Sequence record: PZ338878.1
Source: a phage
Reading direction: 5' to 3' (one strand)
DNA: 64,000 nucleotides
This document shows positions 8,633 through 63,951 of the stretch, one piece after another. Below the pieces are notes generated by a model. It was given only the letters and a program-made list of their open reading frames with translations, did not search any database and had not been told where the DNA came from. The position numbers and the translations under genes were made by a program. Within the stretch, counting starts at the first letter, position 1. The number at the start of each line of letters is the position of its first letter.

Positions 8633-8633
8633 A

Positions 8634-9659: not shown

Positions 9660-9865
9660 TACACATTCTCCTCTTTTACCAATTCCATCGTTGAACTATC
9701 AAAACCATCTTTAGAAGAATAGGTATAGACAGAACGTAGTTCTCGCAGGACAGTAAATACATTAGGATCATCTAACCAAGCATCCTGGAGGAGAACATAA
9801 CGATCTTCATTGTCATACTGGACAGCAATCATAGAACCAGACAGTTTGTAAATTTTAATATTCAT
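9659..9865 (-). CDS. hypothetical protein (68 aa)
   Basis: Track ORF 9659..9892 trimmed in frame to ATG at 9865, preceded by AAGGAG. Confidence 0.4.
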   Translation of the reverse strand: MNIKIYKLSGSMIAVQYDNEDRYVLLQDAWLDDPNVFTVLRELRSVYTYSSKDGFDSSTMELVKEENV

Positions 9866-9878
9866 AATATATTTCTCC

Positions 9879-10982
9879 TTAAAGTAGACCACGTTTAACA
9901 GTTTGAATCATACCATCTTCAAGAGATTGCACTTCTTGAATGTAATCAATACGAGCAGCACGGGCTTCAGTGTTGATTCGGTTAGTTTCTTCCAACATTT
10001 TAACTAAGTTTTCTTGATCGCGACGTAATGTTTCAATATCCAATACTTGACGATTAGCAAGTTGCGTAGCTTCAATTTGGTTTTGTGCAGCCAGATCACT
10101 ACCCATTGCAATAGCAGCATTAAATTCATTCAGTACATTGTTCTGTGTATCGGCTGCTTTCTTCTGGCGTAGACTTTCAATATACATAGAAAAGTTTGCA
10201 GAGTAAGCAGGAATAACATTATTCACAATATTACGGGCTGATCGCATCAAACTTGCAGATACTTTCTGCATACTTTGTACACGTGGCCCCATCTGAACAC
10301 ACAGTAAACGCAAGGCTTTCAGGTCTGCAATACGAATTTCAAGCAGATCCATAGTATCACGAGTACGTTGACGCTCTTCTACTTCATTTTCAGGTAGTGT
10401 ATTAAGGCGAACTTCTTCTTTTTCATAAGTAGCTGTTAGAAGCTCTATATCCCTGTTTAAGCTAAGAGCATATTTTGCAATAGCCTCTTCTAAACGTTGC
10501 AGATATCGTAAAGAATCTTCTTCTTTTTTCAAGTCTGTTTGGAGTGTCTTTACCAAACCTTCAATACGATTATTGATGGTGTCAAATTCACCAAACAAAT
10601 CTTCTTTCATACCTAATACTTTCTTAACTAGTTTACCTAAGCCTTTAGATTGTTTAATAGAATTAGGATCAAGTTGCTTTGCTTGCTTAATAAGTGCAGT
10701 TAAACGCTCACTCATTTCATCTCCCTGAGATGAACGCTGGTGTTTAAGCACTTCCGCATTAAGGTTACGAAGAGTAAGTCCTGCATCAGCACCAACCTGT
10801 TCAATCTCTTCACGAGACATTGGAGGCAGCATTTGTACAGGTCGTGCAACAGCAGGGGCATATACAGGGCTTGCATCCATAGCAGTTGGAGCAAACAAAG
10901 ACTTACTTTTTTCTGTTGTTGCCGTGAATACACTCATTTCAGACGGTTTGCTTTTTACGGCACTGATAAAAGGACTGGACAT
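9879..10982 (-). CDS. TelA-like protein (toxic-anion-resistance / KlaA family)
   Basis: 367 aa; long helical coiled-coil body and N-terminal region resembling TelA; call rests on overall pattern rather than one motif; SD GGAGGA. Confidence 0.5.
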   Translation of the reverse strand: MSSPFISAVKSKPSEMSVFTATTEKSKSLFAPTAMDASPVYAPAVARPVQMLPPMSREEIEQVGADAGLTLRNLNAEVLKHQRSSQGDEMSERLTALIKQAKQLDPNSIKQSKGLGKLVKKVLGMKEDLFGEFDTINNRIEGLVKTLQTDLKKEEDSLRYLQRLEEAIAKYALSLNRDIELLTATYEKEEVRLNTLPENEVEERQRTRDTMDLLEIRIADLKALRLLCVQMGPRVQSMQKVSASLMRSARNIVNNVIPAYSANFSMYIESLRQKKAADTQNNVLNEFNAAIAMGSDLAAQNQIEATQLANRQVLDIETLRRDQENLVKMLEETNRINTEARAARIDYIQEVQSLEDGMIQTVKRGLL

Positions 10983-11050
10983 TCAATTTCCTCCATATTC
11001 TTTAGTAGATGGTGATACCTCTGTACCACCATCATAACACAAATTAAGTA

Positions 11051-11902
11051 TTAAACAAACATATCTAAATAATTTGTAGTAATAAATGCTCCATCTGCTT
11101 CCAGATTAACATAACCAGTAGCATTAGTGGTTAAGAAATCCAGATCGAAGGACTCTTTAACACCCCGTACCTCAACACGAGAGATATCGAATACAGGTAG
11201 TGTAACAGCCTCTTCGTGCAATACCGTACCTTTGTAGGTTGCCTTAATGATAAACTTGATATTACCCGTTCCCGCATCATACAAAACACTTTCAAAGCCT
11301 TTGAGAGTATACTTATCACCAGAGGTGAAGTGCAAAGTTGCTTTGTTTACAGTACGTTTTTTACGAGGAGTTCCTTTCACACGTTTATGATCACTACGTT
11401 TTTTGTATTTAGGAATGAATACAAACGATACACTCTCAAGAAAAGTATCAACATCAAGGATTTTAATATCCTCTGTTGCAGCAAATTTTGAAGTCGTTGC
11501 ATCAAAATGCTTTGCTCTGCGATCATACATAAAGATATCAAACCGATCTTCTAAATCAAACAAATTGTGTATCTTAATTTCAGAATGCTTGCACATTGCA
11601 GCAACCTTAAACTCTTCAAAACGTGGGTGTTCTACAAGCTCTTCAAGTTTTACACCAAAGACAGTATATTGTTTCGAAGTTTTTTCTGGCGTTGGCATTA
11701 CAGAAGCATAATCACCGATTGCGCTTTTAAAGCAAAATTGTTCTTGACCTGTATTTTTACCAACGAATTTACAGTATTCGTCATCGTGCATACTTTCTTT
11801 GGTAGTACCAACAAACTCAAAACCATCTTTATTCTTCTCAAGAATTTCTTGATTAAAGATCCAACCTTCCAGGCGATACACTTTACCAACTTCTAGTTTC
11901 AT
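11051..11902 (-). CDS. hypothetical protein (283 aa)
   Basis: ORF track; no motif. Confidence 0.4.
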   Translation of the reverse strand: MKLEVGKVYRLEGWIFNQEILEKNKDGFEFVGTTKESMHDDEYCKFVGKNTGQEQFCFKSAIGDYASVMPTPEKTSKQYTVFGVKLEELVEHPRFEEFKVAAMCKHSEIKIHNLFDLEDRFDIFMYDRRAKHFDATTSKFAATEDIKILDVDTFLESVSFVFIPKYKKRSDHKRVKGTPRKKRTVNKATLHFTSGDKYTLKGFESVLYDAGTGNIKFIIKATYKGTVLHEEAVTLPVFDISRVEVRGVKESFDLDFLTTNATGYVNLEADGAFITTNYLDMFV

Positions 11903-11937
11903 CTGTTTCTCCTTCTTATTTAATCTGTATTAAATTA

Positions 11938-12528
11938 TTAACGACGACGTGAGCTACTAAAACTACGTTTCGACGAAGAATAACTTTTCGAAGACTTACT
12001 ATAAGAGCTAATAGGGCTTGAGTAAGACTTACGAGCAGAGTAATCACTATTCACTTTTGTTGTTGATGGGCGTGAATACGTTTGTACACTTTGCTGCTTA
12101 ATTGTGTTTTGTTTAGTTGTTGTATATGTATTCCCTTGTTTATCATAAAAACTATGCTTTTGTGTTGTATATGATTTACTGTTAGTTGTAGGAGCAGCGT
12201 TGTTATTAATAATTGTTGTATTGCTACCGCCATCTCTATAACCACCACCGCCACTATTACCACTCAACATATGACCAAGAAGCATACCTGTAGCAAATTC
12301 ACCTACACCAGAAGAACCACTGCCGCCTCCTTGCACAACAACTGTTGAAGGCTGTGCAGGTGCTGCTTGAACAACTTGAGGTGCAGGTTGATTTACATAT
12401 TGTTCATCTACCATCTGATTTGGTGTCTGTTGGTAACGTTGGTTTTGTACATTTTCAGAATCATCACAACCTACCAGCAATGCACTACCTAAAACAACTG
12501 CAACAATAAAAGATTTAATGTTTTTCAT
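11938..12528 (-). CDS. lipoprotein with glycine zipper and low-complexity Ser/Tyr/Lys tail
   Basis: Trimmed in frame to ATG 12528 (MKNIKSF, AGAGGG upstream); lipobox LLVGC; GGGSGSSGVGEFATGMLLGHMLSG. Confidence 0.5.
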   Translation of the reverse strand: MKNIKSFIVAVVLGSALLVGCDDSENVQNQRYQQTPNQMVDEQYVNQPAPQVVQAAPAQPSTVVVQGGGSGSSGVGEFATGMLLGHMLSGNSGGGGYRDGGSNTTIINNNAAPTTNSKSYTTQKHSFYDKQGNTYTTTKQNTIKQQSVQTYSRPSTTKVNSDYSARKSYSSPISSYSKSSKSYSSSKRSFSSSRRR

Positions 12529-12721
12529 TTGTAACCCTCTCATTTAAAGTCTCGACACAATTTTTAAAATCTCTAGAGAAACAATACATCTGTTCTCCGT
12601 TCCTGTTGATAGTAATTGTATGGTTATCAACATATGTTGTCAAGATAAAAATCAAACAAAATAACCCTAAAGCAAAACAAATATTTTCAAACAGAATCCA
12701 AAGAACACGTAAAACCACCAT
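12515..12721 (-). CDS. small hydrophobic protein (68 aa)
   Basis: ORF track; predicted TM segment; weak. Confidence 0.3.
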   Translation of the reverse strand: MVVLRVLWILFENICFALGLFCLIFILTTYVDNHTITINRNGEQMYCFSRDFKNCVETLNERVTNEKH

Positions 12722-12730
12722 CAGATCACC

Positions 12731-12754
12731 TCAATAAAGCCCCCGAAGGGGCTT
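12731..12754 (-). terminator. putative intrinsic terminator after TerC gene
   Basis: GC hairpin aagcccc-cgaa-ggggctt followed by a short U-rich tract on the minus strand. Confidence 0.35.
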
Positions 12755-12760
12755 AATAAA

Positions 12761-13738
12761 TTAAGCAACAGACTGGTCTTCTTTTTCAGGGAAGATTAAA
12801 CTTGCAATAACACCCAGCCCCAGAGTACCTAACACAATATACATACTGATCGTCGGATCAATGTGTGCTGGCAGGAAACTCACTTTTGCGTGCAGAGTTT
12901 CTGCAAACGGGTGATACATCAGTTTTACACCCACAAATACCAGGACTACGATAACTGCTTTCTCCAGATGAACCAAATATTTCAGTGCAACACTAAGGAC
13001 AAAGAACAGAGCACGCAGACCTAAAATTGCACACAGCATTGAAGAAAATACAAGCAGAGGTTCTTGTGTCACTGCAATTACTGCTGGAACAGAGTCTACT
13101 GCAAAAATTACGTCAACCATTTCCATTACAAATACACAAACCAATGCAGGAGTTGCTACACGAACACCATTTTTGATTGTGAAGAACTTCTCACCATCCA
13201 TCTGATCAGATACAGGGAACAGCTTACGAACAATGCGAGTAGCCCAGTGCTTAGAGTAATCAACTTCTGCGTCATTATCTCCAGCAAATACCATTTTAGC
13301 TGCACAGAAAAGGATGACCGCACCGAAGAAGATATTAACATACCAACCCAAACTCAACAAGTAAGTGCCTACTGCTACAAACACACCTCGGAAGACAATC
13401 GCACCTGCAATACCCCAAAGTAGAATCTTGTGTTGCAAGTGTGTGCTTTTAATACCAAAACTTGCGAATACTGCCACAAATACTACTAAGTTATCTACAG
13501 AAAGAGATTTCTCCAACACATACCCACTCAAAAACAAGCTCGCAAAATCAGCACCGTGTTGGAAGTATACAAAACCATAGTAGGCTAACGATACCCCAAT
13601 CCAGAAAATTGACCAGCCAATTGCAGATTTAAATGAAATTTCTTTGTTTTCTCTGTGTCCAAAGAAATCAATACAAATCGACAAGACTAAAATACCCACT
13701 AAAACAACCACATCAATAATTGGGAAACCCAGTTGCAT
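12761..13738 (-). CDS. TerC-family integral membrane protein
   Basis: 325 aa, multi-pass hydrophobic; YVLEKSLSVDNLVVFVAVF is the TerC signature; SD AGAGGAG. Confidence 0.8.
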   Translation of the reverse strand: MQLGFPIIDVVVLVGILVLSICIDFFGHRENKEISFKSAIGWSIFWIGVSLAYYGFVYFQHGADFASLFLSGYVLEKSLSVDNLVVFVAVFASFGIKSTHLQHKILLWGIAGAIVFRGVFVAVGTYLLSLGWYVNIFFGAVILFCAAKMVFAGDNDAEVDYSKHWATRIVRKLFPVSDQMDGEKFFTIKNGVRVATPALVCVFVMEMVDVIFAVDSVPAVIAVTQEPLLVFSSMLCAILGLRALFFVLSVALKYLVHLEKAVIVVLVFVGVKLMYHPFAETLHAKVSFLPAHIDPTISMYIVLGTLGLGVIASLIFPEKEDQSVA

Positions 13739-13757
13739 TCTTTTCTCCTCTTTAATG

Positions 13758-13776
13758 CGGAGGACAATCCTCCGCT
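13758..13776 (-). promoter_or_regulatory. stem-loop in 5-prime UTR of TerC gene
   Basis: gcggagg-acaat-cctccgc perfect 7-bp stem, about 15 nt upstream of the TerC SD. Confidence 0.35.
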
Positions 13777-13815
13777 CTATGTCGTATACTATAAACTGTT
13801 TTTAAAGAAAGTCAA

Positions 13816-14064
13816 CTAGTTCAGTTCTGTAATTTTAAGTTTATCTTCTTTGTTAATGATAGGGAAAGCTACAGCATCACCTACATCATCAATAAAGCAA
13901 ACAGCAAGACCACCTTCCACTTTGCTAACCTGACCATTAAAGGCGTGATACGGGGCAGGAACAATATCTCCATCTTCAAGGAGAATAGCCTCATAAACCT
14001 TACCAATAGTACAATCACGAGTGTTTTTAAATTTTTCAAGCACTTCAACATTTACTTTACGCAT
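13816..14064 (-). CDS. hypothetical protein (82 aa)
   Basis: ORF track; no motif. Confidence 0.4.
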   Translation of the reverse strand: MRKVNVEVLEKFKNTRDCTIGKVYEAILLEDGDIVPAPYHAFNGQVSKVEGGLAVCFIDDVGDAVAFPIINKEDKLKITELN

Positions 14065-14078
14065 ATAAAGATCCTCTC

Positions 14079-14285
14079 TTATTTGTTAGATTGAAAGATA
14101 CCACGAAGTACCGCAAGAATGAACGTCACACAGACTACACTCCAAAACGTTACAGGAACATGATGCCAGTCTAAGCCGATAATGTCAATCATATAGTTGT
14201 ATGCTAAAAGCAGTAGCCAACTAGGGATTAACACAATCAAGAACACAACAATAAAACAACCTAATACTGCTAAAACACCTGCCAT
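14079..14285 (-). CDS. small membrane protein (68 aa)
   Basis: ORF track; two hydrophobic segments. Confidence 0.4.
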   Translation of the reverse strand: MAGVLAVLGCFIVVFLIVLIPSWLLLLAYNYMIDIIGLDWHHVPVTFWSVVCVTFILAVLRGIFQSNK

Positions 14286-14294
14286 ACTTTCTCC

Positions 14295-15011
14295 TTATTT
14301 CAGTTTGTAAACAATTACATTTAAACCTTTGTTCACTAGAGTTTCTTCGATCATAAGTTTTACAATATTCCAAGAACCTCCAGCCAAACCACAACCAAGC
14401 ATTGGTAAACCTACAATTTTACCGCCTGAAGATACAACATCGTCTCCCATACTATCTAACGCATTGTAGATAGCTTCATAATTCAGGTCACGCTTACCTT
14501 CCTCACGACGACTATAACCATATTGTCCATATAAATTATAAATTGTCAAATTGTTTTCTGTATACTTAGTAAACGTACCTAATTTTTTATAATCACCACG
14601 TTTAGTGGCACAATCTGCTTTAAACGCACCAGGCCACTTGCTTTTAATTTTTGGTGCAATACCACTACCCATAGTGCAAAAACAGTTACAGCAGTGTGCT
14701 ATAGCGTCTATATCGCCTCTCTCTGCTGCTGCTAAAAGATCACCGTATACCTCAATGATACCTGGTGGATAACTTGTTACAATTTCATCTTCCCAGTACA
14801 TTTGCTCTACACCACCGATCAGTGCAAAGTTTTGTGTGATGCGATCATCAATATAATTAAGACCTGAAACATACACAGCATATTCATCCTGTGCTGTAAT
14901 GCCTTGTACACGAATTCTTAAGACACCATCTTTATCTGTTGCTACACGCCCAAAATCTTTTTCTGTAATATTGGTGATAGGATCTCCGAAAGTCGTCACT
15001 TTATTAGACAT
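14295..15011 (-). CDS. macro-domain protein, TARG1/DarG-like (putative ADP-ribose hydrolase)
   Basis: Track TTG start replaced by in-frame ATG 15011 (AAGGGG upstream); AIAHCCNCFCTMGSGIAPKIKSKW and GLPMLGCGLAGGSWNIVKLMIEE parallel the TARG1 motifs as recalled (HC...C.MG.GIA and IGCGL...W..V); about 100-aa N-terminal extension of unknown function. Confidence 0.55.
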   Translation of the reverse strand: MSNKVTTFGDPITNITEKDFGRVATDKDGVLRIRVQGITAQDEYAVYVSGLNYIDDRITQNFALIGGVEQMYWEDEIVTSYPPGIIEVYGDLLAAAERGDIDAIAHCCNCFCTMGSGIAPKIKSKWPGAFKADCATKRGDYKKLGTFTKYTENNLTIYNLYGQYGYSRREEGKRDLNYEAIYNALDSMGDDVVSSGGKIVGLPMLGCGLAGGSWNIVKLMIEETLVNKGLNVIVYKLK

Positions 15012-15073
15012 AATAATCCCCTTTAACATTAGATTTGTTGATAATGTTGCTTTCAAAAAATTGACGCAGGAAA

Positions 15074-15862
15074 TCAAAGTTCTCTTTGTATTTTTTCAAT
15101 ATTATTGTAACCTTCTGCAAGGCAACCAAAGAACAGTTGTTCTACATAATACAAAGGAAGTTGTGAAAGTGCAATTTTAAAATCAACTTCGCTTTGACTC
15201 ATTAGATACTTAATAGGACGAACCAAACATTTAGCATCAGTTTCTTGCTTAATCATTTTAATAAAAGCTGCCAAGTTATTGATATAGTTGAAGTTAAGTG
15301 CAGCTTCGGTGTTGGCTTCTGTACCTTCATACTTTGCAAAGTACAGGAAAAACGTATCGTTTTCAACACCTTCTTTGTCTAAAATTTCAATAAGTTTTTC
15401 TTCGTGTGTTCCTGTAATATTAACATCATCAATGAAAATCAGAGTTTTATTACCCCAGAAATCACGATTGATAGAGAAAGTGTCACCATCGATCAAAGCC
15501 TTACGATCTTCTTTGCTAAGAAATCCATAATCATTGATATAACTCACTTTACGATGAACGATATCCCACTCTACTGCTTTACCTCCTTTGATAGAGATTA
15601 GGTAGTTGAGGTGATCTACAAAATGCTCAGATAACACTGTAGCTGCATTTTTCACATAGTTATATGGAGATGGAATAACAACAAAACTTTCATTTGCCAG
15701 TCGTTCTTCATACTTAGAAAAGAAACTTTCAGCCAAAATGCGCCCCATTCTTTTTGCTGCCTGGTTACTACCAAACTTTAGTTTGGAATAATCTGCAATA
15801 TTAAATTTTGCTTCCTTCAGGTTAGTAAAAGTATTAGCAAAATGTTGAATTTGATTACGCAT
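15074..15862 (-). CDS. phosphoribosyltransferase (type I PRTase) domain protein
   Basis: 262 aa; TLIFIDDVNITGTHEEKL is the PRPP-binding signature; SD AGAGGAA. Confidence 0.55.
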   Translation of the reverse strand: MRNQIQHFANTFTNLKEAKFNIADYSKLKFGSNQAAKRMGRILAESFFSKYEERLANESFVVIPSPYNYVKNAATVLSEHFVDHLNYLISIKGGKAVEWDIVHRKVSYINDYGFLSKEDRKALIDGDTFSINRDFWGNKTLIFIDDVNITGTHEEKLIEILDKEGVENDTFFLYFAKYEGTEANTEAALNFNYINNLAAFIKMIKQETDAKCLVRPIKYLMSQSEVDFKIALSQLPLYYVEQLFFGCLAEGYNNIEKIQREL

Positions 15863-16511
15863 TAATAAGTTCCTCTTTTTTAAGTTTAGCCAACAAGTCT
15901 TCTGGATTAATAATATGACAGAACTTCATCCCTATGTCAACAGCTTTTCCATCATAAATCAAACTATCTCCAACGTGTAAAATCTCCTCTGGTGCGAGAT
16001 CAAACGTTACCATTTCATCAAAAGAGAGTTTAAAAAACCTAGGATCTGGTTTACACAAGCAAAACTCATCAGAAAAATGCATAAAGTCAAATGGTAATTT
16101 TGTTAAGCCAGAATATACAGCTAAGAAACTACCTGGTACAAAATTAGTATTGCTCTTAATACTCAAAGAATAGATTGAACTCAGCTCTTCCAATTTCTTG
16201 CAAAGCTCAGGGTTCAATATTGGAGGATGTTTTATAAACATTGCTAAACAGTCTCTTTTTAACCCATCCACTTTATCAAGATCAATGTTCAAACGAGTAG
16301 AAAGTGTTTCCCAAGCATTCCTAGACGTTCCACAAATGCCTTTTTCTGCTTTTAAATCCAGGAGAGTTTTTACCTCTTTATATACGGTAGCTGCTTCTGC
16401 CTCAGAACAAGAGGCATACTCGGCAATAACCTTGTTGCGTTCTTCTGCATACAAAGGATTAGCAGTAATAAGAGTATTCCATACATCAAAAGAAATATGC
16501 TTAACAGTCAT
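15855..16511 (-). CDS. HAD-superfamily hydrolase (haloacid dehalogenase-like)
   Basis: Trimmed in frame to ATG 16511 (MTVKH, GGAGGA upstream); motif I ISFDVWNTL near the N-terminus, C-terminal GDSLIYDGKAVD. Confidence 0.5.
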   Translation of the reverse strand: MTVKHISFDVWNTLITANPLYAEERNKVIAEYASCSEAEAATVYKEVKTLLDLKAEKGICGTSRNAWETLSTRLNIDLDKVDGLKRDCLAMFIKHPPILNPELCKKLEELSSIYSLSIKSNTNFVPGSFLAVYSGLTKLPFDFMHFSDEFCLCKPDPRFFKLSFDEMVTFDLAPEEILHVGDSLIYDGKAVDIGMKFCHIINPEDLLAKLKKEELINA

Positions 16512-16513
16512 TT

Positions 16514-16669
16514 TTAATCCTCCGTCCAAAAGAATATCATCTGCTTAATTTTATTGATCTCTTGATGTAGTAACTTTCCAGCATGTGATTGATCTTTAAT
16601 ATTGACAGCAAGAATTTCAAGCTCCGTTAGTTTTTCCTGAATAGCTTTATATTCATCATCTGTAAGCAT
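16514..16669 (-). CDS. hypothetical small protein (51 aa)
   Basis: Manual translation MLTDDEYKAIQEKLTELEILAVNIKDQ...; AGGGGAAG upstream; its stop overlaps the SD of the HAD gene. Confidence 0.3.
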   Translation of the reverse strand: MLTDDEYKAIQEKLTELEILAVNIKDQSHAGKLLHQEINKIKQMIFFWTED

Positions 16670-21870: not shown

Positions 21871-22443
21871 TTATTTGCTAATGCTTTGAATTTTATTTAC
21901 AACACGGTTTATTGCCAGTGAAGCCCTAGGCTCTGCAATACCTGTTGCATAGATATAAGGATGACCTTTTGGAGACTCCCTCATACCGAATGAACCTAAT
22001 TCTAAACCATATTCATCCTCTACGTCAACCCCAATATTAGTGGGTACTAAATATGTTTTAACTCCATAATAAGTAGAGAAGAAACAGCGCATAGCGTTAG
22101 CATACTCTTCAATTGTAGCATCAGGGTAGAACTCAATCAACTCCAATTTCAAGAAAATATTAAAATGAGTATCATCTAAATTTTCTTCTGTACGGTAACA
22201 TGGTGTTAGTGCCATATACGGATTACCTGCTGCAAATTCAAAACCATCCTTCTCCATTTGCAGGAAAGATTGTTCTGCACTAGCTACATAGTATTTACCG
22301 TTAGGATGCCCTAATGGGCGATCCTCTTTATTTTCTGGTAATGTGTACGCCAGTATATCAGCATCCACGAGATATGGAACTTCTAACATTTGTGCAAATC
22401 GACCATAGTAATCAATAGCTTGAGCTATTACTGCAACATTCAT
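21871..22443 (-). CDS. hypothetical protein with class II aminoacyl-tRNA-synthetase-like motif 2 (tentative)
   Basis: 190 aa; CYRTEENLDDTHFNIFLKLELIEFY resembles class II motif 2; too short for a complete synthetase core. Confidence 0.25.
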   Translation of the reverse strand: MNVAVIAQAIDYYGRFAQMLEVPYLVDADILAYTLPENKEDRPLGHPNGKYYVASAEQSFLQMEKDGFEFAAGNPYMALTPCYRTEENLDDTHFNIFLKLELIEFYPDATIEEYANAMRCFFSTYYGVKTYLVPTNIGVDVEDEYGLELGSFGMRESPKGHPYIYATGIAEPRASLAINRVVNKIQSISK

Positions 22444-33095: not shown

Positions 33096-34223
33096 ATGAA
33101 ATACACGATTTATGGTGATATTGTAAGTGTAAATAAAGATATGGGCGTGGAATCTAACTACCTTCCACCTGGATTCTATACTGTTAGTCGTGATCCCCTT
33201 GGCAATTACTTTTTAAGCCGTGGTAATCTAACAGGTGTACCGGATGTTCTGTATGGTGAAACAGAAAAACGAGCAAATCACGTTATTCGTACATTCCATC
33301 GCCGTAGTGCACAAGGTAAAAACACAGGCTTGCTTCTGACAGGAACTAAGGGCAGTGGTAAAACTATGTTAGCCAAACTCATTAGTCGTGACCTTGTAGA
33401 AGAAGGTATTCCAACTATTATGGTTACTCAAGCCTACAGCGATGCTAATTTCATTGAACTTATTAGCAAGATCACCGACAAAGCAGTGATTATTTTTGAC
33501 GAGTTTGATAAAGTGTATGAGAAGAAACAAGATCAAGAAGCACTTCTCACTTTGTTAGATGGTACTGGCAGTGGTAATAAACTGTTTATTCTGACTAAAA
33601 ACAGTGGTTTTATCTCTGAATTCTTTTTAAATCGTCCTAGTCGTGTGTTTTATAATTTTAATTATGATAAAATCTCACTAGAAACTATGATTGACTACTT
33701 AGATAAAAACCTGGATAACAAAGCACACTTTGATAATTTCCAAAGACTTTGGGATGTAAGTTTAGAGTTGTCCTTTGATGTGATCCAAGGTATAGTAGAA
33801 GAACTTAATTTCTACCCTGATTTATCCTTTAAAGAATGCATCTCTATGATGGGCGTTTCTTTAGGTGGTGGTAATAAATGGGATATCAGCAGCGTTGTTA
33901 TTAATGGAAAACTTCAGAAAGTTAGCTGGGTATCTAGTTGGCATAACTTCACACCTGCAATCTTTTTAGGTGGTTCGTGCACACTAGACGTGTACTTGTC
34001 ATCTCCAAGTGATGCAGACTCTAAAGAAGCCCTTGCTAATAGCTCTTACGTGGTTTTTGATGATGAAGGAGATGCTCGAATTCCATTGAATGCGACAAAA
34101 ATGAAAGCAGATCTTATTACAGGCGGTAAAATCGTTGTGTTTAGTGACGATCCAGAAGATTCTTTCCGTATTGTTCTGGAACCAACTATCACCAATGGTG
34201 CAACTTTGGCAAGTGTGTTTTAA
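33096..34223 (+). CDS. P-loop ATPase (AAA-like), paralog of 16919..18079
   Basis: 375 aa; Walker A GTKGSGKT, Walker B VIIFDEFDK, LLTLLDG. Confidence 0.6.
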   Translation: MKYTIYGDIVSVNKDMGVESNYLPPGFYTVSRDPLGNYFLSRGNLTGVPDVLYGETEKRANHVIRTFHRRSAQGKNTGLLLTGTKGSGKTMLAKLISRDLVEEGIPTIMVTQAYSDANFIELISKITDKAVIIFDEFDKVYEKKQDQEALLTLLDGTGSGNKLFILTKNSGFISEFFLNRPSRVFYNFNYDKISLETMIDYLDKNLDNKAHFDNFQRLWDVSLELSFDVIQGIVEELNFYPDLSFKECISMMGVSLGGGNKWDISSVVINGKLQKVSWVSSWHNFTPAIFLGGSCTLDVYLSSPSDADSKEALANSSYVVFDDEGDARIPLNATKMKADLITGGKIVVFSDDPEDSFRIVLEPTITNGATLASVF

Positions 34224-34240
34224 GTAAGCTAGCAAATAAA

Positions 34241-34264
34241 AACCCGCTCCGGCGGGTTTTCTTG
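34241..34264 (+). terminator. intrinsic terminator
   Basis: acccgc-tccg-gcgggt hairpin followed by TTTTCTTG; near-identical copy at 60040-60066. Confidence 0.65.
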
Positions 34265-34297
34265 TATTGATGCCAGATTTAATAAGAGGAGTAATAG

Positions 34298-35695
34298 ATG
34301 ACAGCACCAAAATCATGGGAACAATATAAAGAAGAATTAACACCCCTTGCTAAAAATCACAATATTCAAATCCTGGGTTATGTTGGGGAATGGAAAGGGA
34401 GCAAGACTAAACTTAAACTATCTTGCCCTGATCATGGAGAGTGGGAAAGTACCGTAATCACTAACTTTAAAACTAGAGGCGGTAAATGTTGCCCCGATTG
34501 CAATGGTCATAGAAAAGTAACAGAAGAAAAGGAATGTATTTCCCTTGTTGATGTTGCTAAAGAAAGAGGGTTTACTTTTATAGGTCTTGCCGAGGAGTGG
34601 CGAGGTGTACGAACAAAAATTCGCATAATTTGCCCTAAACATGGAGAGTGGAACACCACAAATATTATTAGTTTTAGGAATGGACATGGTTGTCCGACAT
34701 GTGCAAGTAATAAGCCGTTAACATGGGAAACAGAATTACCGATCTTGGAAGAGATAGCACAGAAGAAGGGGTATCAAGTGTTAGGGTACGTTGGAGAATG
34801 GAAAAGAAATAAAACAAAACTTGATTTGTTGTGTCATTGTGGTTATAAATGGGATACTACAAGTATTAACAGTTTTAAACGTGGTAGTGGTTGTCCTTTA
34901 TGTGGGTATAAGAATACAGGTAAGTCACAAACAATATCCGACGATCAACATATTGCAGATTTCTTTTCTACTGGTGTCTTCCCTGAAGGCACTATCTTCA
35001 CTAACACAGGAGCACGGGGGAAAGGATGTGGGCATATTATCTGGATGGTTGAATGTCCTGTTTGCTCTCATGATGAATATGTTCAAGCAGGTGTTTGCAA
35101 TGGTAAATTTTACTCTAAAGGATATAACCTTAAACGAGGACACATGCCGTGTCGTTGTGGAAACTATCATTATACAGAAGACCAGATCACCTACAAAGTG
35201 AGAAAGGAAGTAGAGAGTAAAGGGTATATTTGGGTAGGATGGATCAGTAAACCTAGTGCAAAAGGCAAGTTTAAATATTGGTGCAATAAACACGGGGAAC
35301 AAATTGGAAATGCTGATAGTTTGATACATAGGGGAGCTGGGTGTCCACAGTGTGCTGGTCATAGTCAACAGCAATTATATATTAATATTGTTAAAGATAA
35401 TGATATTATAGTTGCTCTTAAGTTTGGTATAGCTAAAGATAGCGATAGACGATTAAACCGTCAAAATAACCATAATATGTTTTTTATGGAGCGTATTTGT
35501 TTATATGATTTTAGCACAGTGAAACAATGTAAGGCTGCTGAAAGAGCTATAAAGAAAAAATTAAAAACTGGTATTTTAACGGAAAGAGAGTTGAAAGACG
35601 GTTATACAGAAACAGTAAGTGTTTCTGATTTGGAAAATCTTCAAAAAATTATTACACAATATGGTGGCAAGTTAGTATACAGTAAGGAGGTGTAA
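34298..35695 (+). CDS. multi-zinc-ribbon protein with C-terminal GIY-YIG/T5orf172-like region (putative nuclease-like)
   Basis: 465 aa; at least four tandem modules of the form GEW...CP.HGEW..T.I..F..G.GCP.C; C-terminal LYINIVKDNDIIVALKFGIAKDSDRRLNRQNNH. Confidence 0.4.
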   Translation: MTAPKSWEQYKEELTPLAKNHNIQILGYVGEWKGSKTKLKLSCPDHGEWESTVITNFKTRGGKCCPDCNGHRKVTEEKECISLVDVAKERGFTFIGLAEEWRGVRTKIRIICPKHGEWNTTNIISFRNGHGCPTCASNKPLTWETELPILEEIAQKKGYQVLGYVGEWKRNKTKLDLLCHCGYKWDTTSINSFKRGSGCPLCGYKNTGKSQTISDDQHIADFFSTGVFPEGTIFTNTGARGKGCGHIIWMVECPVCSHDEYVQAGVCNGKFYSKGYNLKRGHMPCRCGNYHYTEDQITYKVRKEVESKGYIWVGWISKPSAKGKFKYWCNKHGEQIGNADSLIHRGAGCPQCAGHSQQQLYINIVKDNDIIVALKFGIAKDSDRRLNRQNNHNMFFMERICLYDFSTVKQCKAAERAIKKKLKTGILTERELKDGYTETVSVSDLENLQKIITQYGGKLVYSKEV

Positions 35696-36247
35696 ATGCG
35701 GATTACTGATAAGTATGTGTTCTTCTTCTCGGCAAAAGATGAATTTAGCAACTGGTATCTATCATCTTTTATTGAACCTTTAGCTCCCAAGTATAATAAT
35801 TCTATTACAAGTTCTGTTGAATTTACTTGTGTGGAACAATATATGATGTGGAGAAAAGCATGTTTGTTTTATGATTACAACATTGCATCTTCTATTTTAA
35901 CCGGAGATCTAAGATATACAGGAGAAAAAGAACAGGCATATTATAAGCGACTAGGTAGATTAGTTAAAGATTACGATGAAGCTACTTGGACTTCTTTACG
36001 GGAGAAGATTGTCAAGCGTGGTTTGTATCTTAAATACACACAAAATGAAGATCTCAAAAATAAACTTATCGCTTACGCAGATAAGGAGTTCGTAGAGGCA
36101 AGCCCTTATGATTCTATTTATGGTATCAAAATGGGGATGTGGGATCGTGATGTTGAAAACAAGGATCGTTGGAAAGGACAAAATCTTTTAGGAAAATGGC
36201 ATACAGACCTTGCTGTTTATCTAAAAACACAATCTGATATTTCCTGA
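35696..36247 (+). CDS. NADAR (YbiA-like) domain protein
   Basis: 183 aa; FFFSAKDEFSNWYLSSF, EQYMMWRKA, VEASPYDSIYGIKMG, WKGQNLLGKW follow the NADAR/YbiA motif order. Confidence 0.7.
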   Translation: MRITDKYVFFFSAKDEFSNWYLSSFIEPLAPKYNNSITSSVEFTCVEQYMMWRKACLFYDYNIASSILTGDLRYTGEKEQAYYKRLGRLVKDYDEATWTSLREKIVKRGLYLKYTQNEDLKNKLIAYADKEFVEASPYDSIYGIKMGMWDRDVENKDRWKGQNLLGKWHTDLAVYLKTQSDIS

Positions 36248-59709: not shown

Positions 59710-60033
59710 ATGCAAAAAATAAACACCGGTTCTCGTCCTAAACAGAAGCAAACAAAAGCAAGGGTATCTTATGTTGATAACTCTTGTTATAATTTCAAAA
59801 ATGTTAAAGAAGTTATCATTGACGAAAAAGAAGGTTTGATTCACATTTCATCTGAACGTTTGAAAGGTAGTGTTACTATTCGTGAGAATGTATCTGTACC
59901 TATGAAAGTCGTGGCTACACTCTGTGTTGATAAACCAGATGTTGTTAACTACTATGTGTTCCGTGATAACTGTATTGCATTACATAATAAGATTTTTAAA
60001 TCTTCGCACGTTAAAACAAAACACATTGTATAA
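59710..60033 (+). CDS. hypothetical protein (107 aa)
   Basis: ORF track; SD AAGGAAAA. Confidence 0.4.
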   Translation: MQKINTGSRPKQKQTKARVSYVDNSCYNFKNVKEVIIDEKEGLIHISSERLKGSVTIRENVSVPMKVVATLCVDKPDVVNYYVFRDNCIALHNKIFKSSHVKTKHIV

Positions 60034-60039
60034 CACATA

Positions 60040-60066
60040 AACCCGCTTCGGCGGGTTTTCTTGTAT
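60040..60066 (+). terminator. intrinsic terminator (duplicate of 34241-34264)
   Basis: acccgc-ttcg-gcgggt hairpin followed by TTTTCTTG. Confidence 0.65.
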
Positions 60067-60118
60067 ATACGCTCTTTATCTGTTATAAACACTTTTACCA
60101 TAAACAATAGGAGGTATT

Positions 60119-60340
60119 ATGTCTGTAGTTGTAGAAGGTAGTATTGGTTTCTTAGTAGATAACCCTCACCCTTTCGTGGTTAAGGTTCATATTCAAGAAA
60201 AGGTAAGCAACAATACGTGGCTGTGCTTGTTAGATAGTAAGATACACTCTTATACAGAGGTTTATCTTCACACTTGGCAAATTGGTACAATAACAGCAGA
60301 GGATGAATTGATAATTGAACTATATGAACGAGATCTATAG
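60119..60340 (+). CDS. hypothetical protein (73 aa)
   Basis: ORF track; SD AGGAGGT. Confidence 0.4.
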   Translation: MSVVVEGSIGFLVDNPHPFVVKVHIQEKVSNNTWLCLLDSKIHSYTEVYLHTWQIGTITAEDELIIELYERDL

Positions 60341-60415
60341 ATGACTTTACTAGAGAGTATTGTAGTGTTAATCATCTTTATCATTATTGTCATAGGATAT
60401 TTTACAGAAGACTAA
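60341..60415 (+). CDS. micro-ORF, hydrophobic peptide (24 aa)
   Basis: Manual translation MTLLESIVVLIIFIIIVIGYFTED; start abuts the upstream stop. Confidence 0.2.
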   Translation: MTLLESIVVLIIFIIIVIGYFTED

Positions 60416-60420
60416 AATAA

Positions 60421-60455
60421 AGCCCCTAGAATCGCTTCTAGGGGCTTTTGTTTGC
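60421..60455 (+). terminator. intrinsic terminator at end of rightward operon
   Basis: gcccctag-aatcgctt-ctaggggc hairpin followed by TTTTGTTT. Confidence 0.6.
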
Positions 60456-60515
60456 ATTAGGTAGGGAAACGTATTACTAAAATAAAAAGTGCGTTAGAAT
60501 GCGTTACAGGAGGTT

Positions 60516-60773
60516 TTAGGAATGCATAAAATCTTCTTCAGGGCAGGTTGAGAGATAAGAGATGCACGTTGGGACAACAACAACATTGTCTTTAAGGTTT
60601 TCAACCAAGCCTTTTGTAATCCCAGCCACTGCCCCGTTAATATCTGCTTGACGGATACCAAAGCCTTGTTGTGCGGATAGGTAACAAAATCCCTCGCCTT
60701 TCTGTTGATTGTTATTGAAGTAATAAACGTAGTGCATCATAAAATGGTCTTTAACGATTTGTTCTGTGGTCAT
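60516..60773 (-). CDS. hypothetical protein (85 aa)
   Basis: ORF track; SD AGGAG. Confidence 0.4.
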   Translation of the reverse strand: MTTEQIVKDHFMMHYVYYFNNNQQKGEGFCYLSAQQGFGIRQADINGAVAGITKGLVENLKDNVVVVPTCISYLSTCPEEDFMHS

Positions 60774-60782
60774 AATATTCTC

Positions 60783-60809
60783 CTATAAGAAAAGGGGCTT
60801 TCGCCCCCT
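60783..60809 (-). terminator. putative intrinsic terminator after Sir2 gene
   Basis: aagggggc-gaaa-gcccctt hairpin followed by a weak U-run on the minus strand. Confidence 0.4.
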
Positions 60810-60817
60810 TGGTTAAG

Positions 60818-61630
60818 TTATTTAGTCAAATGATCTTCTATCATTTTTATGAAAGCAGGATTGCTAAAAGCATCTGCGGCTTTTTCTCGATAAACAAAGA
60901 CTCCTCTATCTTCGTAAAGAAGAGTTTCTTCGTAATTAATTCCTGGGTTAACAACAATCATTTTTGTACCCATATTAAGTGCAGGGAATAATTCCCAATT
61001 AAAATTGATAACTTGGTTTGAACATCCTACTACAACAACCAAATCTTGCATGGTCAAAGTATCAAACAAGTGAGCCATATCTGCATACAAAGGTGCAGCC
61101 TCACCAAAAAATACAACATTAGGCTTCACCCAGTTATAATCATCTATGTTTATGCTGTTGTAACCAATATCTACCAGTGTTTTGTAATCTCCAGGATGCA
61201 TACGGTAAACTACTTCAGGAAGATATCCGTGCACGTGAATAACCGAATCTCTGTCTACACCTGCTCGCTCTAGTAGATCATCAACGTTTGTTGTCAAGTT
61301 TACTACTTGGTTAGGATATTCCTTAAACCACTTTGCTATTTGAATATGTGCAGCATTAGGTTGTACATCTTTAAGCTCAACACGTCTTTTGTTATAAAAT
61401 TCGTGTGTTTTGGCATACAAATCCATACCGTTTTCGTCTACACCACCAACCACTGGAAGATCTGGAGATGTTCTCACACGATAACCTGCTTGGAAAGCTC
61501 CAATATTGCAGACCTCTTCTAAATCATATTCTTCCCATAAAGCACGACCACTATCTGTGTCTGTTCGGAATGTTCGAATCCCACTGTCTGCACTTAAACC
61601 AGCTCCACTAACAAAAATTACTCTTCGCAT
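60818..61630 (-). CDS. Sir2-family protein (sirtuin-like; NAD-dependent deacylase, ADP-ribosyltransferase or NADase)
   Basis: 270 aa; GAGLSADSGIRTFR, TTNVDDL, catalytic VIHVHGYL, VVVGCS; lacks the CxxC zinc-ribbon pairs of canonical sirtuins; SD GAGGA. Confidence 0.75.
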   Translation of the reverse strand: MRRVIFVSGAGLSADSGIRTFRTDTDSGRALWEEYDLEEVCNIGAFQAGYRVRTSPDLPVVGGVDENGMDLYAKTHEFYNKRRVELKDVQPNAAHIQIAKWFKEYPNQVVNLTTNVDDLLERAGVDRDSVIHVHGYLPEVVYRMHPGDYKTLVDIGYNSINIDDYNWVKPNVVFFGEAAPLYADMAHLFDTLTMQDLVVVVGCSNQVINFNWELFPALNMGTKMIVVNPGINYEETLLYEDRGVFVYREKAADAFSNPAFIKMIEDHLTK

Positions 61631-62172
61631 TCAATATCCTCTTCGTAATCATCATACCAAGAAGATGCGTCGTAACGCTCTTCCTCTTCGAAATCCCAAT
61701 TAATTTCTACTCCAAAATCTAAAAACAATTTAACAATGTTTTCTGTAGAATAGTATTTATCATAAGCGTTAGCTAGTTCCCAATACTTATCACTCAATTT
61801 TTTATAATTAGGATCATTGTAATCATGAGCTACTTTATCACCATAATCATACATCTCTTCTTCAGCTTTAAGCATAGCTTCTGGTGTAAGAAGATTAGGG
61901 AACGGACGATTTCTTTCTTTTAACTTAGAAGCAATCCAGTTTGCAACATTCGCCACTTCACCATCTCGATTATCACCTAAACAACTTGCATAATCTCCAT
62001 CTTCGTAAGTGCCTAAATCCCCACTGACTTCATGTACAATAGATGAATACGATCCACACGTTTCACAATCTGAAAAAGTGTCTACTGTTGTAATATCAAT
62101 AGATAAAACTGGTAAAGCCATAGCTTCTTTCACACAAGCCTCCTCATATAATAACATATCATCAAAACCCAT
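61618..62172 (-). CDS. hypothetical acidic protein (184 aa)
   Basis: Track TTG start trimmed in frame to ATG 62172 (MGFDDMLLY, GGAGGA upstream). Confidence 0.4.
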   Translation of the reverse strand: MGFDDMLLYEEACVKEAMALPVLSIDITTVDTFSDCETCGSYSSIVHEVSGDLGTYEDGDYASCLGDNRDGEVANVANWIASKLKERNRPFPNLLTPEAMLKAEEEMYDYGDKVAHDYNDPNYKKLSDKYWELANAYDKYYSTENIVKLFLDFGVEINWDFEEEERYDASSWYDDYEEDIECEE

Positions 62173-62183
62173 ATATCCTCCAG

Positions 62184-62209
62184 ACAAATAAAGCCCCTGG
62201 TTGGGGCTT
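62184..62209 (-). terminator. intrinsic terminator
   Basis: aagcccc-tggtt-ggggctt hairpin followed by UAUUUGU on the minus strand. Confidence 0.5.
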
Positions 62210-62226
62210 TGGTTAAGTTTTACAGA

Positions 62227-62838
62227 TTATACCAGACTTTTAAGGTAGTTGTCAAGTGCTTCTTGATCACCTTGACAAACATAGCAACGGAAGTCTTGAG
62301 CAGAAGGTTCTTTGTCCTCTTCCCAATCCCAATAGACAGTACCTTTATAGCGTGAACCTGGAAACTCGAAGTATGCTACGTGGGTAATATGGTGTGGGCC
62401 ACCCCAAAACTCTGTAAAAGTAAATTGAGGATACGCTGCTTTAACTGTATTTTCAAACCAAGTTTTACGATCTAATGCTTCGTTTATAAAATAAGCATGG
62501 CGTTCCATTTCATCCCAATCTTTCCAAACGCATTTTTCATCCAGAGAAAAAACAAAATTCTCACTGTTAAAATCGTCTGTATCTGATTCCAAAATATCAT
62601 AATCATGTGCGCTAGGTATCCACCATCCAGCTTCTAATAGTGCTTTCGCAGGTACAAAACCTTTTTCAGCGTATTGATCAAATTCTTTTACTCTACGTAC
62701 AGTGCAGTATTCATCTTCACCACCAATGTCCAGCATACAAGCGCCTTTGCGTCTTGCTGCAAGACCATGTGTATCAAAAACTACAACACTACCTTCACCA
62801 TCTTCACGATCTACTTGATATGCCACTTTTTGAGTCAT
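62227..62838 (-). CDS. hypothetical protein (203 aa)
   Basis: ORF track. Confidence 0.45.
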   Translation of the reverse strand: MTQKVAYQVDREDGEGSVVVFDTHGLAARRKGACMLDIGGEDEYCTVRRVKEFDQYAEKGFVPAKALLEAGWWIPSAHDYDILESDTDDFNSENFVFSLDEKCVWKDWDEMERHAYFINEALDRKTWFENTVKAAYPQFTFTEFWGGPHHITHVAYFEFPGSRYKGTVYWDWEEDKEPSAQDFRCYVCQGDQEALDNYLKSLV

Positions 62839-62839
62839 A

Positions 62840-62962
62840 TTACCCCCAATGTATATGGGAAATTAACCAAAAGATAAATTCCCAAAAACACCAACCAAGA
62901 AAAGTTAATGGAATTATAAAAGCTATCAGAGCAGTCTTCCAGCCTTTCCACAATGTTTCCAT
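62840..62962 (-). CDS. small membrane protein (40 aa)
   Basis: Manual translation METLWKGWKTALIAFIIPLTFLGWCFWEFIFWLISHIHWG; start overlaps the methyltransferase stop. Confidence 0.3.
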   Translation of the reverse strand: METLWKGWKTALIAFIIPLTFLGWCFWEFIFWLISHIHWG

Positions 62963-63951
62963 CATTCCTCCATACACTTAAGAATATGTGCAATGACAGG
63001 TATAGTCCAACCATTACCTAACATCTTATATGCTTGTGTGTTACTACTCACTTTAAAGTAATCATCTGGAACACCTTGTAAGCGGCAACACTCTTTAACC
63101 GTTAACTTTCTATAATGCACACCTTCACTCAATTTTTCAAAGGCATCCAGATATCTTCCAGGTGGAATGTAAGCTAATAGTACGTCTTTCGGCACAGTCG
63201 TGAGGCAACGAGTTTTTTCACTGTCCTGAACTTCCAAGCAATGTACCAAACGATCAGTTTTAGATGTACTACGTTTGCCATTTTCATTAATTCTACGCCC
63301 ATATATTGCTGCTGGATAAAAAACCAGTTGTCTGCGACTCTTTTCAAAATACTGTTCTATATTACCACCTTTGGCATAATTTGCATCTATGCAATACGCC
63401 TTGTCCCTGTCTACAATACTATCATCTTCAATAATATCTTGCAACACTTCATTGGTAATATCCCAAGGCTTTATTTCCCAATTGCACCAGTATAAACGTT
63501 GTCTATTCTGTGCCGTGAAATCTGCGGAGTTAATGAATACGGGATCAACACCTAAGTAACTTGTGATCACGTTTTCCCACTCTACCTTCATCTTAACGTT
63601 TTCAAGCATGAACTTAACATTAGGGTTAAACTTTTTAATATGTTCAAGAATTTCAACATATTCAAAGAACAGTTTAGATCGCGGATCTTGAAAGTTCAAA
63701 CCCTTACCAGAAGAAGAGAAGCCTTGGCACGGGCTACCACCTAACAAAAGATCAATTTCTCCCCACGGGATATCCCATTCTCTCCATTTTGTAACATCCC
63801 CTAATTGAATAATGTCTGGAAAATTGGCTTGGCTTTCAGCTATGGCAAATTTGTCCAATTCTGAGGCATAATATTTATCTACTTCAATACCTGCACTTTT
63901 TAGTGCAAGCATTCCTCCTGACATACCATCAAAAAGACTTAAAACTTTCAT
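62962..63951 (-). CDS. DNA (cytosine-5)-methyltransferase
   Basis: 329 aa; motif I LSLFDGMSGG, motif IV GGSPCQGFS, ENV, AQNRQRLYW, MLGNGW; SD AAGGAG. Confidence 0.85.
   Translation of the reverse strand: MKVLSLFDGMSGGMLALKSAGIEVDKYYASELDKFAIAESQANFPDIIQLGDVTKWREWDIPWGEIDLLLGGSPCQGFSSSGKGLNFQDPRSKLFFEYVEILEHIKKFNPNVKFMLENVKMKVEWENVITSYLGVDPVFINSADFTAQNRQRLYWCNWEIKPWDITNEVLQDIIEDDSIVDRDKAYCIDANYAKGGNIEQYFEKSRRQLVFYPAAIYGRRINENGKRSTSKTDRLVHCLEVQDSEKTRCLTTVPKDVLLAYIPPGRYLDAFEKLSEGVHYRKLTVKECCRLQGVPDDYFKVSSNTQAYKMLGNGWTIPVIAHILKCMEE

Follow-up and report, generated by a model that had tools for sequence, protein, structure and literature searches.

A phage sirtuin without zinc-ribbon cysteines that groups with CobB-type deacylases: a candidate NAD+-dependent lysine deacylase in Justusliebigvirus

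Introduction

Most viral sirtuins have been placed in 'a distinct clade', with phage V5, Mydo, SP15 and Serratia phage BF as prototypes, for which a KptA/Tpt1-like role in RNA repair was predicted from gene neighbourhoods (Iyer, Burroughs, Anantharaman and Aravind, 2022; PMC9503650, section 3.7.3). The Sir2/CobB proteins of the Vibrio phages phiSt2, phiGrn1 and KVP40 have been described as lacking the zinc ligand site, with T5 among the carriers, and a deacetylase role was proposed for them (Skliros et al., 2016; PMC5107563). In the dedicated ADP-ribosyltransferase (ART) sirtuins, SirTM, the catalytic His is replaced by Gln (QG...R) and the gene is linked in an operon to a macrodomain (PMC8120803). 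Here, we compare with these systems, with CobB and with the SIR2 enzymes of defence systems the product of a Sir2-family gene that lies on the minus strand of a 64,000-nucleotide stretch of phage DNA (sequence record PZ338878.1; 'the window' below means this whole stretch). Our favoured reading, to which we give a probability of roughly 0.45, is that its product is catalytically competent, needs no zinc and works as an NAD+-dependent protein lysine deacylase, and that it belongs to a branch of the CobB/SIRT5-like sirtuins specific to phages.

The source phage is an E. coli Justusliebigvirus (Stephanstirmvirinae), and the window is about 99% identical to deposited genomes. Positions 60000-63000 share 99.1% identity with Escherichia phage pEC-M2929-1AR.1 and 98.7% with phage alia, both Justusliebigvirus, whose records already label this gene a Sir2-family deacetylase; proteins 99.6% identical to its product are on deposit as 'putative Sir2-like protein'. 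The gene and its missing zinc site are already known, and describing them adds nothing beyond the deposited and published record. The questions addressed here are which kind of sirtuin the gene encodes and what that enzyme may do.

Family membership and closest relatives

The gene is one ATG-initiated open reading frame (ORF) in the ORF listing:

60818..61630, minus strand: Sir2-family coding sequence, 270 amino acids (aa); ORF, Pfam PF02146, PHROG 2162, AlphaFold2 predicted local distance difference test (pLDDT) 91.2, top fold matches CobB and Sir2-Af1

All motifs that the original prediction had quoted are found in its translation (GAGLSADSGIRTFR at residues 9-22, TTNVDDL at 113-119, HG at 134-135 and VVVGCS at 199-204), and the claim of a phage-encoded Sir2-family protein with catalytic motifs is borne out. 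The Pfam SIR2 match (PF02146, E=1.7e-22) scores 80.7 bits, above the curated gathering threshold of 24; the match to PHROG 2162, 'Sir2 (NAD-dependent deacetylase)', runs over the full length (residues 1-269, E=2.9e-106); and 1164 homologues were found at E<=1e-3 in a large protein collection. Because of these scores and the number of homologues, the assignment is beyond chance. What this article shows directly is the sequence family and the modelled fold, the retention of the catalytic residues apart from the Gln of TQNxD, the absence of the zinc cysteines, and how the gene is conserved and where it lies in the genome.

The same prediction held the protein to be closer to the Sir2 NADase or ADP-ribosyltransferase domains of defence systems than to CobB, a view that the comparison with known sirtuins did not support, as each result pointed in the opposite direction. 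A phmmer search of the PDB returned E. coli CobB first (1S5P, E=1.2e-18), followed by Sir2-Af and SIRT5, and BLASTP against CobB gave 32% identity over 213 residues; the CobB query for BLASTP agrees with the phmmer alignment to the PDB entry. The protein matched Pfam PF02146 and did not match Pfam SIR2_2, and its sole match among the PADLOC models, PDC-S65 (E=0.0066 over 37 residues), is at noise level. An AlphaFold2 model built from a 61-sequence alignment (mean pLDDT 91.2, predicted template modelling score 0.88) contains both the Rossmann domain and the small domain of the sirtuin fold, and the top 50 Foldseek matches in the PDB were all canonical deacylases, namely CobB, Sir2-Af1/2, SIRT5, SIRT2 or Sir2Tm. 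The fold comparison gave the following values:

Sir2-Af1: 21.8
PfSir2A: 19.3
SIRT4: 18.5
SIRT1, Hst2, SIRT2 and ySir2: 16.4-17.9
SirTM: 14.7-15.2
SIRT6: 14.6
Defence enzymes PsSIR2, KomC, HerA-Sir2, ThsA and Avs5: 13.7 down to 9.7
FAM118B: 9.7

The modelled structure is thus nearer to the deacylases than to the defence SIR2 proteins, which are among the lowest. On sequence and model, the protein is grouped with the canonical deacylase sirtuins, and its nearest relatives are of class III (CobB/SIRT5 type). With CobB, Sir2-Af1, PfSir2A and SIRT5 it shares GAGxS...FR, the N and D of TQNxD, the catalytic His, FGE and the Tyr-x-x-Arg pair, the last of which speaks further against a defence-like enzyme; with CobB it also shares the Pfam family, a similar size and an acidic charge.

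The defence SIR2 NADases (ThsA, DSR1/2, SIR2-HerA, SPARSA, KomC, Avs5) resemble the phage protein in the Rossmann-type NAD-binding superfamily and in the absence of a zinc ribbon, an absence that speaks for the reading of the original prediction, an enzyme that depletes or manipulates host NAD+ or a catalytically irrelevant decoy. All sirtuins, moreover, can slowly hydrolyse NAD+. However, the profiles and sequences of the defence families are unmatched by the phage protein, which is a stand-alone, single-domain protein of 270 aa encoded by a lytic phage, with no oligomerisation partner or effector context, and no sensor or partner (SLOG, HerA, pAgo, STAND, TIR) was found fused to it or among its neighbours. 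A collapse of NAD+ would be no gain for a lytic phage, and the closest complete genome (OP177727.1) carries a Nampt-like and Prs-like gene pair, which resembles the published NARP1 pathway of NAD+ reconstitution. Because this genome lineage invests in rebuilding NAD+, a role as bulk NADase is disfavoured, and because of the same gene pair an enzyme that consumes NAD+ fits better than deliberate destruction of it. For a decoy, the invariance of the catalytic and substrate-tunnel residues would be hard to explain. We consider both the NADase and the decoy very improbable.

Conserved residues and the zinc-less small domain

Residues were compared in a family alignment of 61 members, 55-93% identical to the query, and among the 135 nearest full-length sequences of the 2207 relatives that an exhaustive HMMER search retrieved from 1.84 billion cluster representatives. 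The relevant elements are:

61565..61606, minus strand: NAD-binding glycine-rich loop and cofactor-loop Phe-Arg, residues 9-22 (GAGLSADSGIRTFR), aligned with CobB GAGISAESGIRTFR
61382..61396, minus strand: class-III Tyr-x-x-Arg pair, Y79-N-K-R82-R83, aligned with CobB FYNARR and SIRT5 Y102/R105
61280..61294, minus strand: equivalent of TQN(I/V)D, T113-T114-N115-V116-D117, with Thr for Gln (family alignment)
61229..61231, minus strand: codon of the catalytic His134 (HVHG), aligned with CobB HMHG
61127..61228, minus strand: remnant of the zinc-ribbon module, residues 135-168, with a conserved D-I-G-Y (representative alignment; AlphaFold2)

The sirtuin set of catalytic and NAD-binding residues (GAGxS, F-R, Q-N-x-D, H-G) is present and invariant in the 61 members, except for the Gln, which is Thr114. 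In the NAD-binding loop this concerns G9, A10, G11, S13 and S16, in the cofactor-loop Phe-Arg F21 and R22, in the second motif T114, N115, V116 and D117, and at the active site H134 and G135, with His134 also found in 135 of the 135 nearest representatives. Further invariant stretches in the family are K169-P-N-V, F174-F175, E177, G202, S204 and N228. The Tyr-x-x-Arg pair is an anion-binding element in SIRT5 and CobB; here Y79, R82 and R83 are invariant in the 61 members, and Tyr79 occurs in 128 and Arg82 in 103 of the 135 representatives.

The small domain is where the protein departs from its cellular relatives. The whole protein has only two cysteines, C41 and C203. Residues 135-168 contain none of the cysteines of the four-cysteine zinc module, in the query or in the family, and both C-x-x-C pairs are gone, which upholds the prediction that the zinc-ribbon pairs are missing. 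In the alignment, Y142 occupies the column of the first cysteine of zinc-bearing relatives. Despite the loss of the cysteines the module of about 35 residues has been kept, and AlphaFold2 places beta strands at 135-143, 151-154 and 167-172 with pLDDT >90; judging by this model, the small domain apparently folds without zinc ligands. Elsewhere in the chain, the protein is longer than CobB by an insertion of ~16-25 residues at positions 47-70 and by one of 4 residues in the flexible cofactor loop, where pLDDT is low at residues 23-29.

The loss of cysteines goes together with the exchange in the second motif: Thr114 is found in 31 representatives that have lost the cysteines versus 9 that bear them, and Gln in 10 versus 69, counts that are descriptive and carry no true probability, as the sequences are related. 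A neighbour-joining tree puts the query in a clade of 41 representatives, of which 37 carry a single module cysteine or none, and 34 have Thr114. More distant relatives retain the four cysteines and TQNxD and have the EVC, FYNxRR and IGY motifs in common with the clade, and for this reason the zinc-less form looks derived from inside the CobB-like subfamily. A cluster look-up of the nearest zinc-bearing relatives returned almost only metagenomic sequences.

A candidate deacylase and the evidence on both sides

From these observations we infer the enzymatic activity, the substrates and the time of expression. In the deacylase reading, NAD+ would be bound by the Rossmann domain through GAGLS...FR, N115 and D117, and the acyl-lysine would enter a hydrophobic tunnel (F21, V116, F175), where its acyl oxygen would attack C1' of the nicotinamide ribose and nicotinamide would be released. 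His134 would then activate the 2'-OH, and the intermediate would be resolved to free lysine and O-acyl-ADP-ribose. Through Tyr79 and Arg82, acidic acyl groups (succinyl, malonyl) may be accepted besides acetyl, as by CobB. The enzyme would clear proteins of the host or the phage of acyl groups, whether imposed by the host or arising from metabolism, probably in early or middle infection, given the place of the gene at the end of a nucleotide-metabolism and replication block, and the cost in cofactor could be met by the NAD+-rebuilding genes of the phage.

Such a role is made plausible by a 2026 preprint, which reports that lysines of phage proteins are acetylated during infection, reversibly and apparently by the host. 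Conservation argues for an enzyme under selection. In a tblastn search, homologues were found in 984 of 50,697 phage records (~2%), with identities to the query of 65-99% in Stephanstirmvirinae, ~57% in Mydovirus, 53% in T5-like Demerecviridae, including T5 itself (T5.102, 'putative Sir2-like protein'), ~48% in Vequintavirus/rV5-like phages and ~30-40% in Vibrio schizoT4-like and jumbo phages (~38% in the Vibrio schizoT4-like ones). Because this conservation extends over several phage families, the function of the protein is probably a selected enzymatic one. The members of this phage sirtuin clade (T5.102; rV5, Mydo and SP15; KVP40 and phiSt2) resemble the protein studied here in the full-length PHROG 2162 match, the cysteine-less module and TTNVD.

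Several observations weigh against deacylation. The protein does not reach the CobB equivalog level: the CobB-type models, the only NCBIfam models matched, all score far under their cutoffs (106.8 bits versus 243 for NF001753, 87 versus 320 for NF040867). The clade as a whole differs from CobB and other class III enzymes, as the zinc site is lost across it, the Gln of TQNxD has become an invariant Thr, GTS has become GCS, and a near-invariant QVINFNWELFP stands where the canonical V-Y-P substrate-binding loop follows GTS. Orthologues in other phage lineages sit in RNA-repair cassettes, the host already has CobB, and full-text literature searches turned up no clade member that had been studied by biochemistry or genetics. 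The clade-specific departures hint at a changed substrate, and since the exchange of Gln for Thr, the new substrate loop and the loss of zinc imply a changed substrate or regulation, we keep our confidence in deacylation below one half.

RNA repair as a possible alternative function

The orthologous neighbourhoods underlie the main alternative, predicted by Iyer et al. (2022), a Tpt1/KptA-like RNA 2'-phosphotransferase. Here, the 2'-phosphate of a broken or re-ligated tRNA or other RNA would take the place of the acyl oxygen in the attack on C1' of NAD+, and an attack by the 2''-OH, assisted by His134, would yield ADP-ribose 1'',2''-cyclic phosphate and a clean 2'-OH. The enzyme would work with a phage RNA ligase, kinase and phosphoesterase and counter host anticodon nucleases. 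This chemistry parallels the sirtuin mechanism, the invariant Tyr79, Arg82 and Arg83 could hold a phosphate, and the changes in the substrate loop specific to the clade would fit a new substrate. The likeness to Tpt1/KptA concerns the proposed function only (ADP-ribose passed from NAD+ to an anionic oxygen, then attack of the 2''-OH) and the analogy of gene neighbourhoods in other phages (PMC9503650), whereas the fold is unrelated and sequence similarity is absent.

The neighbourhoods themselves are suggestive. In Klebsiella Mydovirus (KpS8 cluster), the 57% identical orthologue lies in the order Metallophos, Rnl1, cREC, AAA_33 kinase, 74-aa gene, SIR2, DNA ligase; in T5-like phages the order is NrdD, SIR2, HAD_SAK_2 RNA-end phosphatase, with 300 nucleotides (nt) between SIR2 and HAD_SAK_2. 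Together with a third type in jumbo phages, these make three independent kinds of neighbourhood (PMC9503650), and the first two were confirmed here. The closest complete genome to the window contains an intact cassette of cREC, Metallophos, Rnl1, AAA_33 kinase and DNA ligase, and the same region (81.7-94.7 kb of OP177727.1) holds a cluster of ~13 tRNA genes and the Nampt-like/Prs-like pair. However, this cassette is ~28 kb upstream of Sir2 in that genome and outside the window, and none of the RNA-repair genes (Rnl1, kinase, phosphoesterase, HAD_SAK, 2H) is adjacent to Sir2, whose neighbours are three uncharacterised genes and a C5 methylase. In this respect the Stephanstirmvirinae gene differs from other members of the clade, being off the RNA-repair cassette and flanked by lineage-specific genes, among them an acidic 184-aa one that is translationally coupled to it. 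In Justusliebigvirus, Sir2 appears to have been displaced from the slot between kinase and ligase that it has in Mydovirus.

Linkage of Sir2 to such genes is confined to some lineages. A general co-inheritance of Sir2 and Rnl1 across phages was looked for and not found, and Sir2 seems to be absent from many of the Pseudomonas phages that have Rnl1. Rnl1 occurs in 175 Pseudomonas phage records, whereas this genus does not figure among the frequent hosts of the Sir2-carrying records; for Salmonella the counts are 15 for Rnl1 versus 289 for Sir2, and no T5-sized Escherichia or Salmonella record was among 60 sampled Rnl1 matches. Charge also argues against an RNA substrate: Tpt1/KptA are basic proteins and Tpt1 binds RNA, whereas the phage Sir2 family is acidic (median pI, or isoelectric point, 4.94; net charge of the protein -14), with no added nucleic-acid-binding domain. 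The acyl-lysine tunnel residues are retained, and T4-type Rnl1 pathways make no 2'-phosphate junction. We regard it as unlikely, though worth entertaining, that the clade acts on nucleic acid instead of deacylating, be it by removal of a 2'-phosphate or by another ADP-ribosylation of RNA ends; deacylation remains our favoured reading.

The gene block around Sir2

On the minus strand, a long run of genes in one direction has Sir2 as its last but one member. In the closest complete genome, the run starts with genes for DNA ligase, exonuclease, thymidine kinase, thymidylate synthase, ribonucleotide reductase and dTDP-rhamnose, continues with PhoH and methyltransferase genes and leads to Sir2. Locally, the order on the minus strand is C5 DNA methylase, 203-aa gene, 184-aa acidic gene, Sir2, hairpin, 85-aa gene and a bidirectional terminator, beyond which lies a block of convergent small genes:

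62962-63951, minus strand: C5 cytosine DNA methyltransferase, full length (Pfam E=3.4e-43)
62227..62838, minus strand: 203-aa coding sequence beside the 184-aa/Sir2 pair (PHROG 8514; no Pfam match; 67% identity to phAPEC8 gp195)
62226..62255, minus strand: perfect sigma-70 consensus (TTGACA, 18 nt, TG-n-TATAAT; 12/12), a candidate promoter overlapping the end of the 203-aa gene (pattern scan)
62190..62210, minus strand: G+C-rich hairpin between the 203-aa and 184-aa genes, within ~15 nt of the promoter consensus (pattern scan)
61618..62172, minus strand: 184-aa coding sequence, very acidic product (pI 4.05, net charge -32); its 3' end overlaps the Sir2 start by 13 nt
60792..60810, minus strand: terminator-like hairpin and T-run directly 3' of the Sir2 stop (pattern scan)
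60516..60773, minus strand: 85-aa coding sequence, last of the minus-strand block (PHROG 15991; 47% identity to phAPEC8 gp198)
60419..60448, both strands: 13-bp hairpin, terminator-like in both directions, where the convergent blocks meet (pattern scan; a terminator is annotated there in phAPEC8)

The four-gene block and its 13-nt overlap are conserved in phAPEC8, with identities of 67% for the 203-aa protein, 34% for the acidic protein, 69% for Sir2 and 47% for the 85-aa protein. No recognisable family was found for the three neighbours (203, 184 and 85 aa). For the 184-aa acidic protein there was no Pfam match, its PHROG carries no functional assignment, a word-indexed search gave only 3 homologues, a reasonable AlphaFold2 model had no structural match, and no homologue stands beside Sir2 in the Mydovirus or T5-like loci. 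The protein evolves fast, to judge from its 34% identity in phAPEC8 versus 69% for Sir2; it has a disordered acidic tail and shares cysteines at CETCG, ASC and a C-terminal EC with its phAPEC8 orthologue. It could be a DNA mimic, an anti-defence protein or a partner of Sir2. The C5 methylase slot seems variable between phages; the equivalent slot of phAPEC8 holds an annotated DNA methyltransferase gene of 684 nt versus 990 nt, probably of another type.

An extended -10 promoter consensus that runs straight into a terminator-like hairpin is odd. In phAPEC8, TTGACA and a TATAGT -10 element are retained inside coding sequence, and the hairpin in the same gap has a different sequence and a stronger T-run. 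The pair may serve attenuation or stabilise a 5' end; alternatively, the promoter match may merely follow from what the sequence encodes.

NAD and ADP-ribose genes elsewhere in the window

The original prediction had combined Sir2 with macro, NADAR, PRTase and HAD genes into a strong investment in NAD/ADP-ribose chemistry. These genes are 25-45 kb from Sir2; the list also gives the Ter-type genes that accompany three of them:

7838-8632, minus strand: vWA-TerF, Ter-type cluster
9879-10982, minus strand: TelA, Ter-type cluster
12761-13738, minus strand: TerC, as annotated in phage alia, Ter-type cluster
14295-15077, minus strand: Macro-domain protein (Pfam E=2.9e-07)
15074-15862, minus strand: PRTase_3, ComF-like (E=1.6e-38)
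15855-16529, minus strand: HAD hydrolase
35696-36247, plus strand: NADAR protein (Pfam E=1.3e-36)

The Macro and NADAR genes are real, and the Nampt-like/Prs-like pair of the closest complete genome adds to them, so that part of the claim stands; the trio of Macro, PRTase and HAD, on the other hand, is not linked to Sir2. Its genes have overlapping ends and lie within a Ter-type stress-response cluster (7838-16529, minus strand), which resembles the Ter-linked 'nucleoside-like metabolite' gene sets of Anantharaman, Iyer and Aravind (2012). A functional link between Sir2 and the trio was considered and rejected, as the two are 45 kb apart, the trio belongs to the TelA/TerC/vWA-TerF cluster and there is no sign of coupling.

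These genes bear on a further alternative, in which the protein would be a mono-ADP-ribosyltransferase that reprograms its target, be this a protein of the host or the phage or some other macromolecule. It would then be comparable with SirTM, SIRT6 or the unrelated T4 Alt/Mod, and its modification could be reversed, or its products cleaned up, by the Macro and NADAR proteins encoded within the window. The residues for NAD binding and nicotinamide cleavage are intact, and the exchange of Gln for Thr together with the altered substrate loops could shift the outcome of the reaction. However, the Macro and NADAR genes belong to unrelated clusters, and the phage protein keeps the invariant H134 where SirTM has Gln. 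Since the His is retained and the macrodomain linkage is absent (the nearest Macro gene is 45 kb off), membership of SirTM was rejected. ADP-ribosyl transfer appears improbable, more so than a role in RNA repair.

The NADAR gene has its own surroundings. It directly follows the gene of a 465-aa protein (34298-35695, plus strand) with five CapR-homology repeats and a T5orf172 domain, and the same run includes an AAA/STAND-like ATPase (33096-34223, plus strand); the region 33096-36247 (plus strand) may form a module of its own, concerned with ADP-ribose or with conflict.

Two observations concern annotation. A 190-aa protein (21871-22443, minus strand) without a Pfam match falls into PHROG 4806, 'histidyl tRNA synthetase', a label that is probably wrong because 190 aa is far too short for such an enzyme; gp176 of phage alia, near the Sir2 block, has the same length and label and is a possible second copy. 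In addition, ~25 unannotated 'Campylobacter phage' records in GenBank (host Campylobacter jejuni; MG065639, MG065645, MG065656 and MG065689 among them) are 98% identical to E. coli Stephanstirmvirinae or rV5-like phages, which probably reflects a problem of host or label.

Implications

The gene belongs to a well-annotated family and very probably encodes no defence-type NADase, and the interest that is left lies in the function of a common phage enzyme that is present in T5. Its carriers include, besides this model phage, many therapy-candidate coliphages, Salmonella phages and Klebsiella phages. If the deacylase reading is true, phages actively rewrite the acyl-proteome of the host or of the virus. 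If the protein instead acts on RNA, it would be the first sirtuin shown to do so, sirtuin chemistry would extend to nucleic acids, and T5-like, rV5-like and phAPEC8-like phages would have in common a new step of counter-defence or tRNA repair. Under either reading, the model suggests that the small domain of a sirtuin can apparently fold without zinc.

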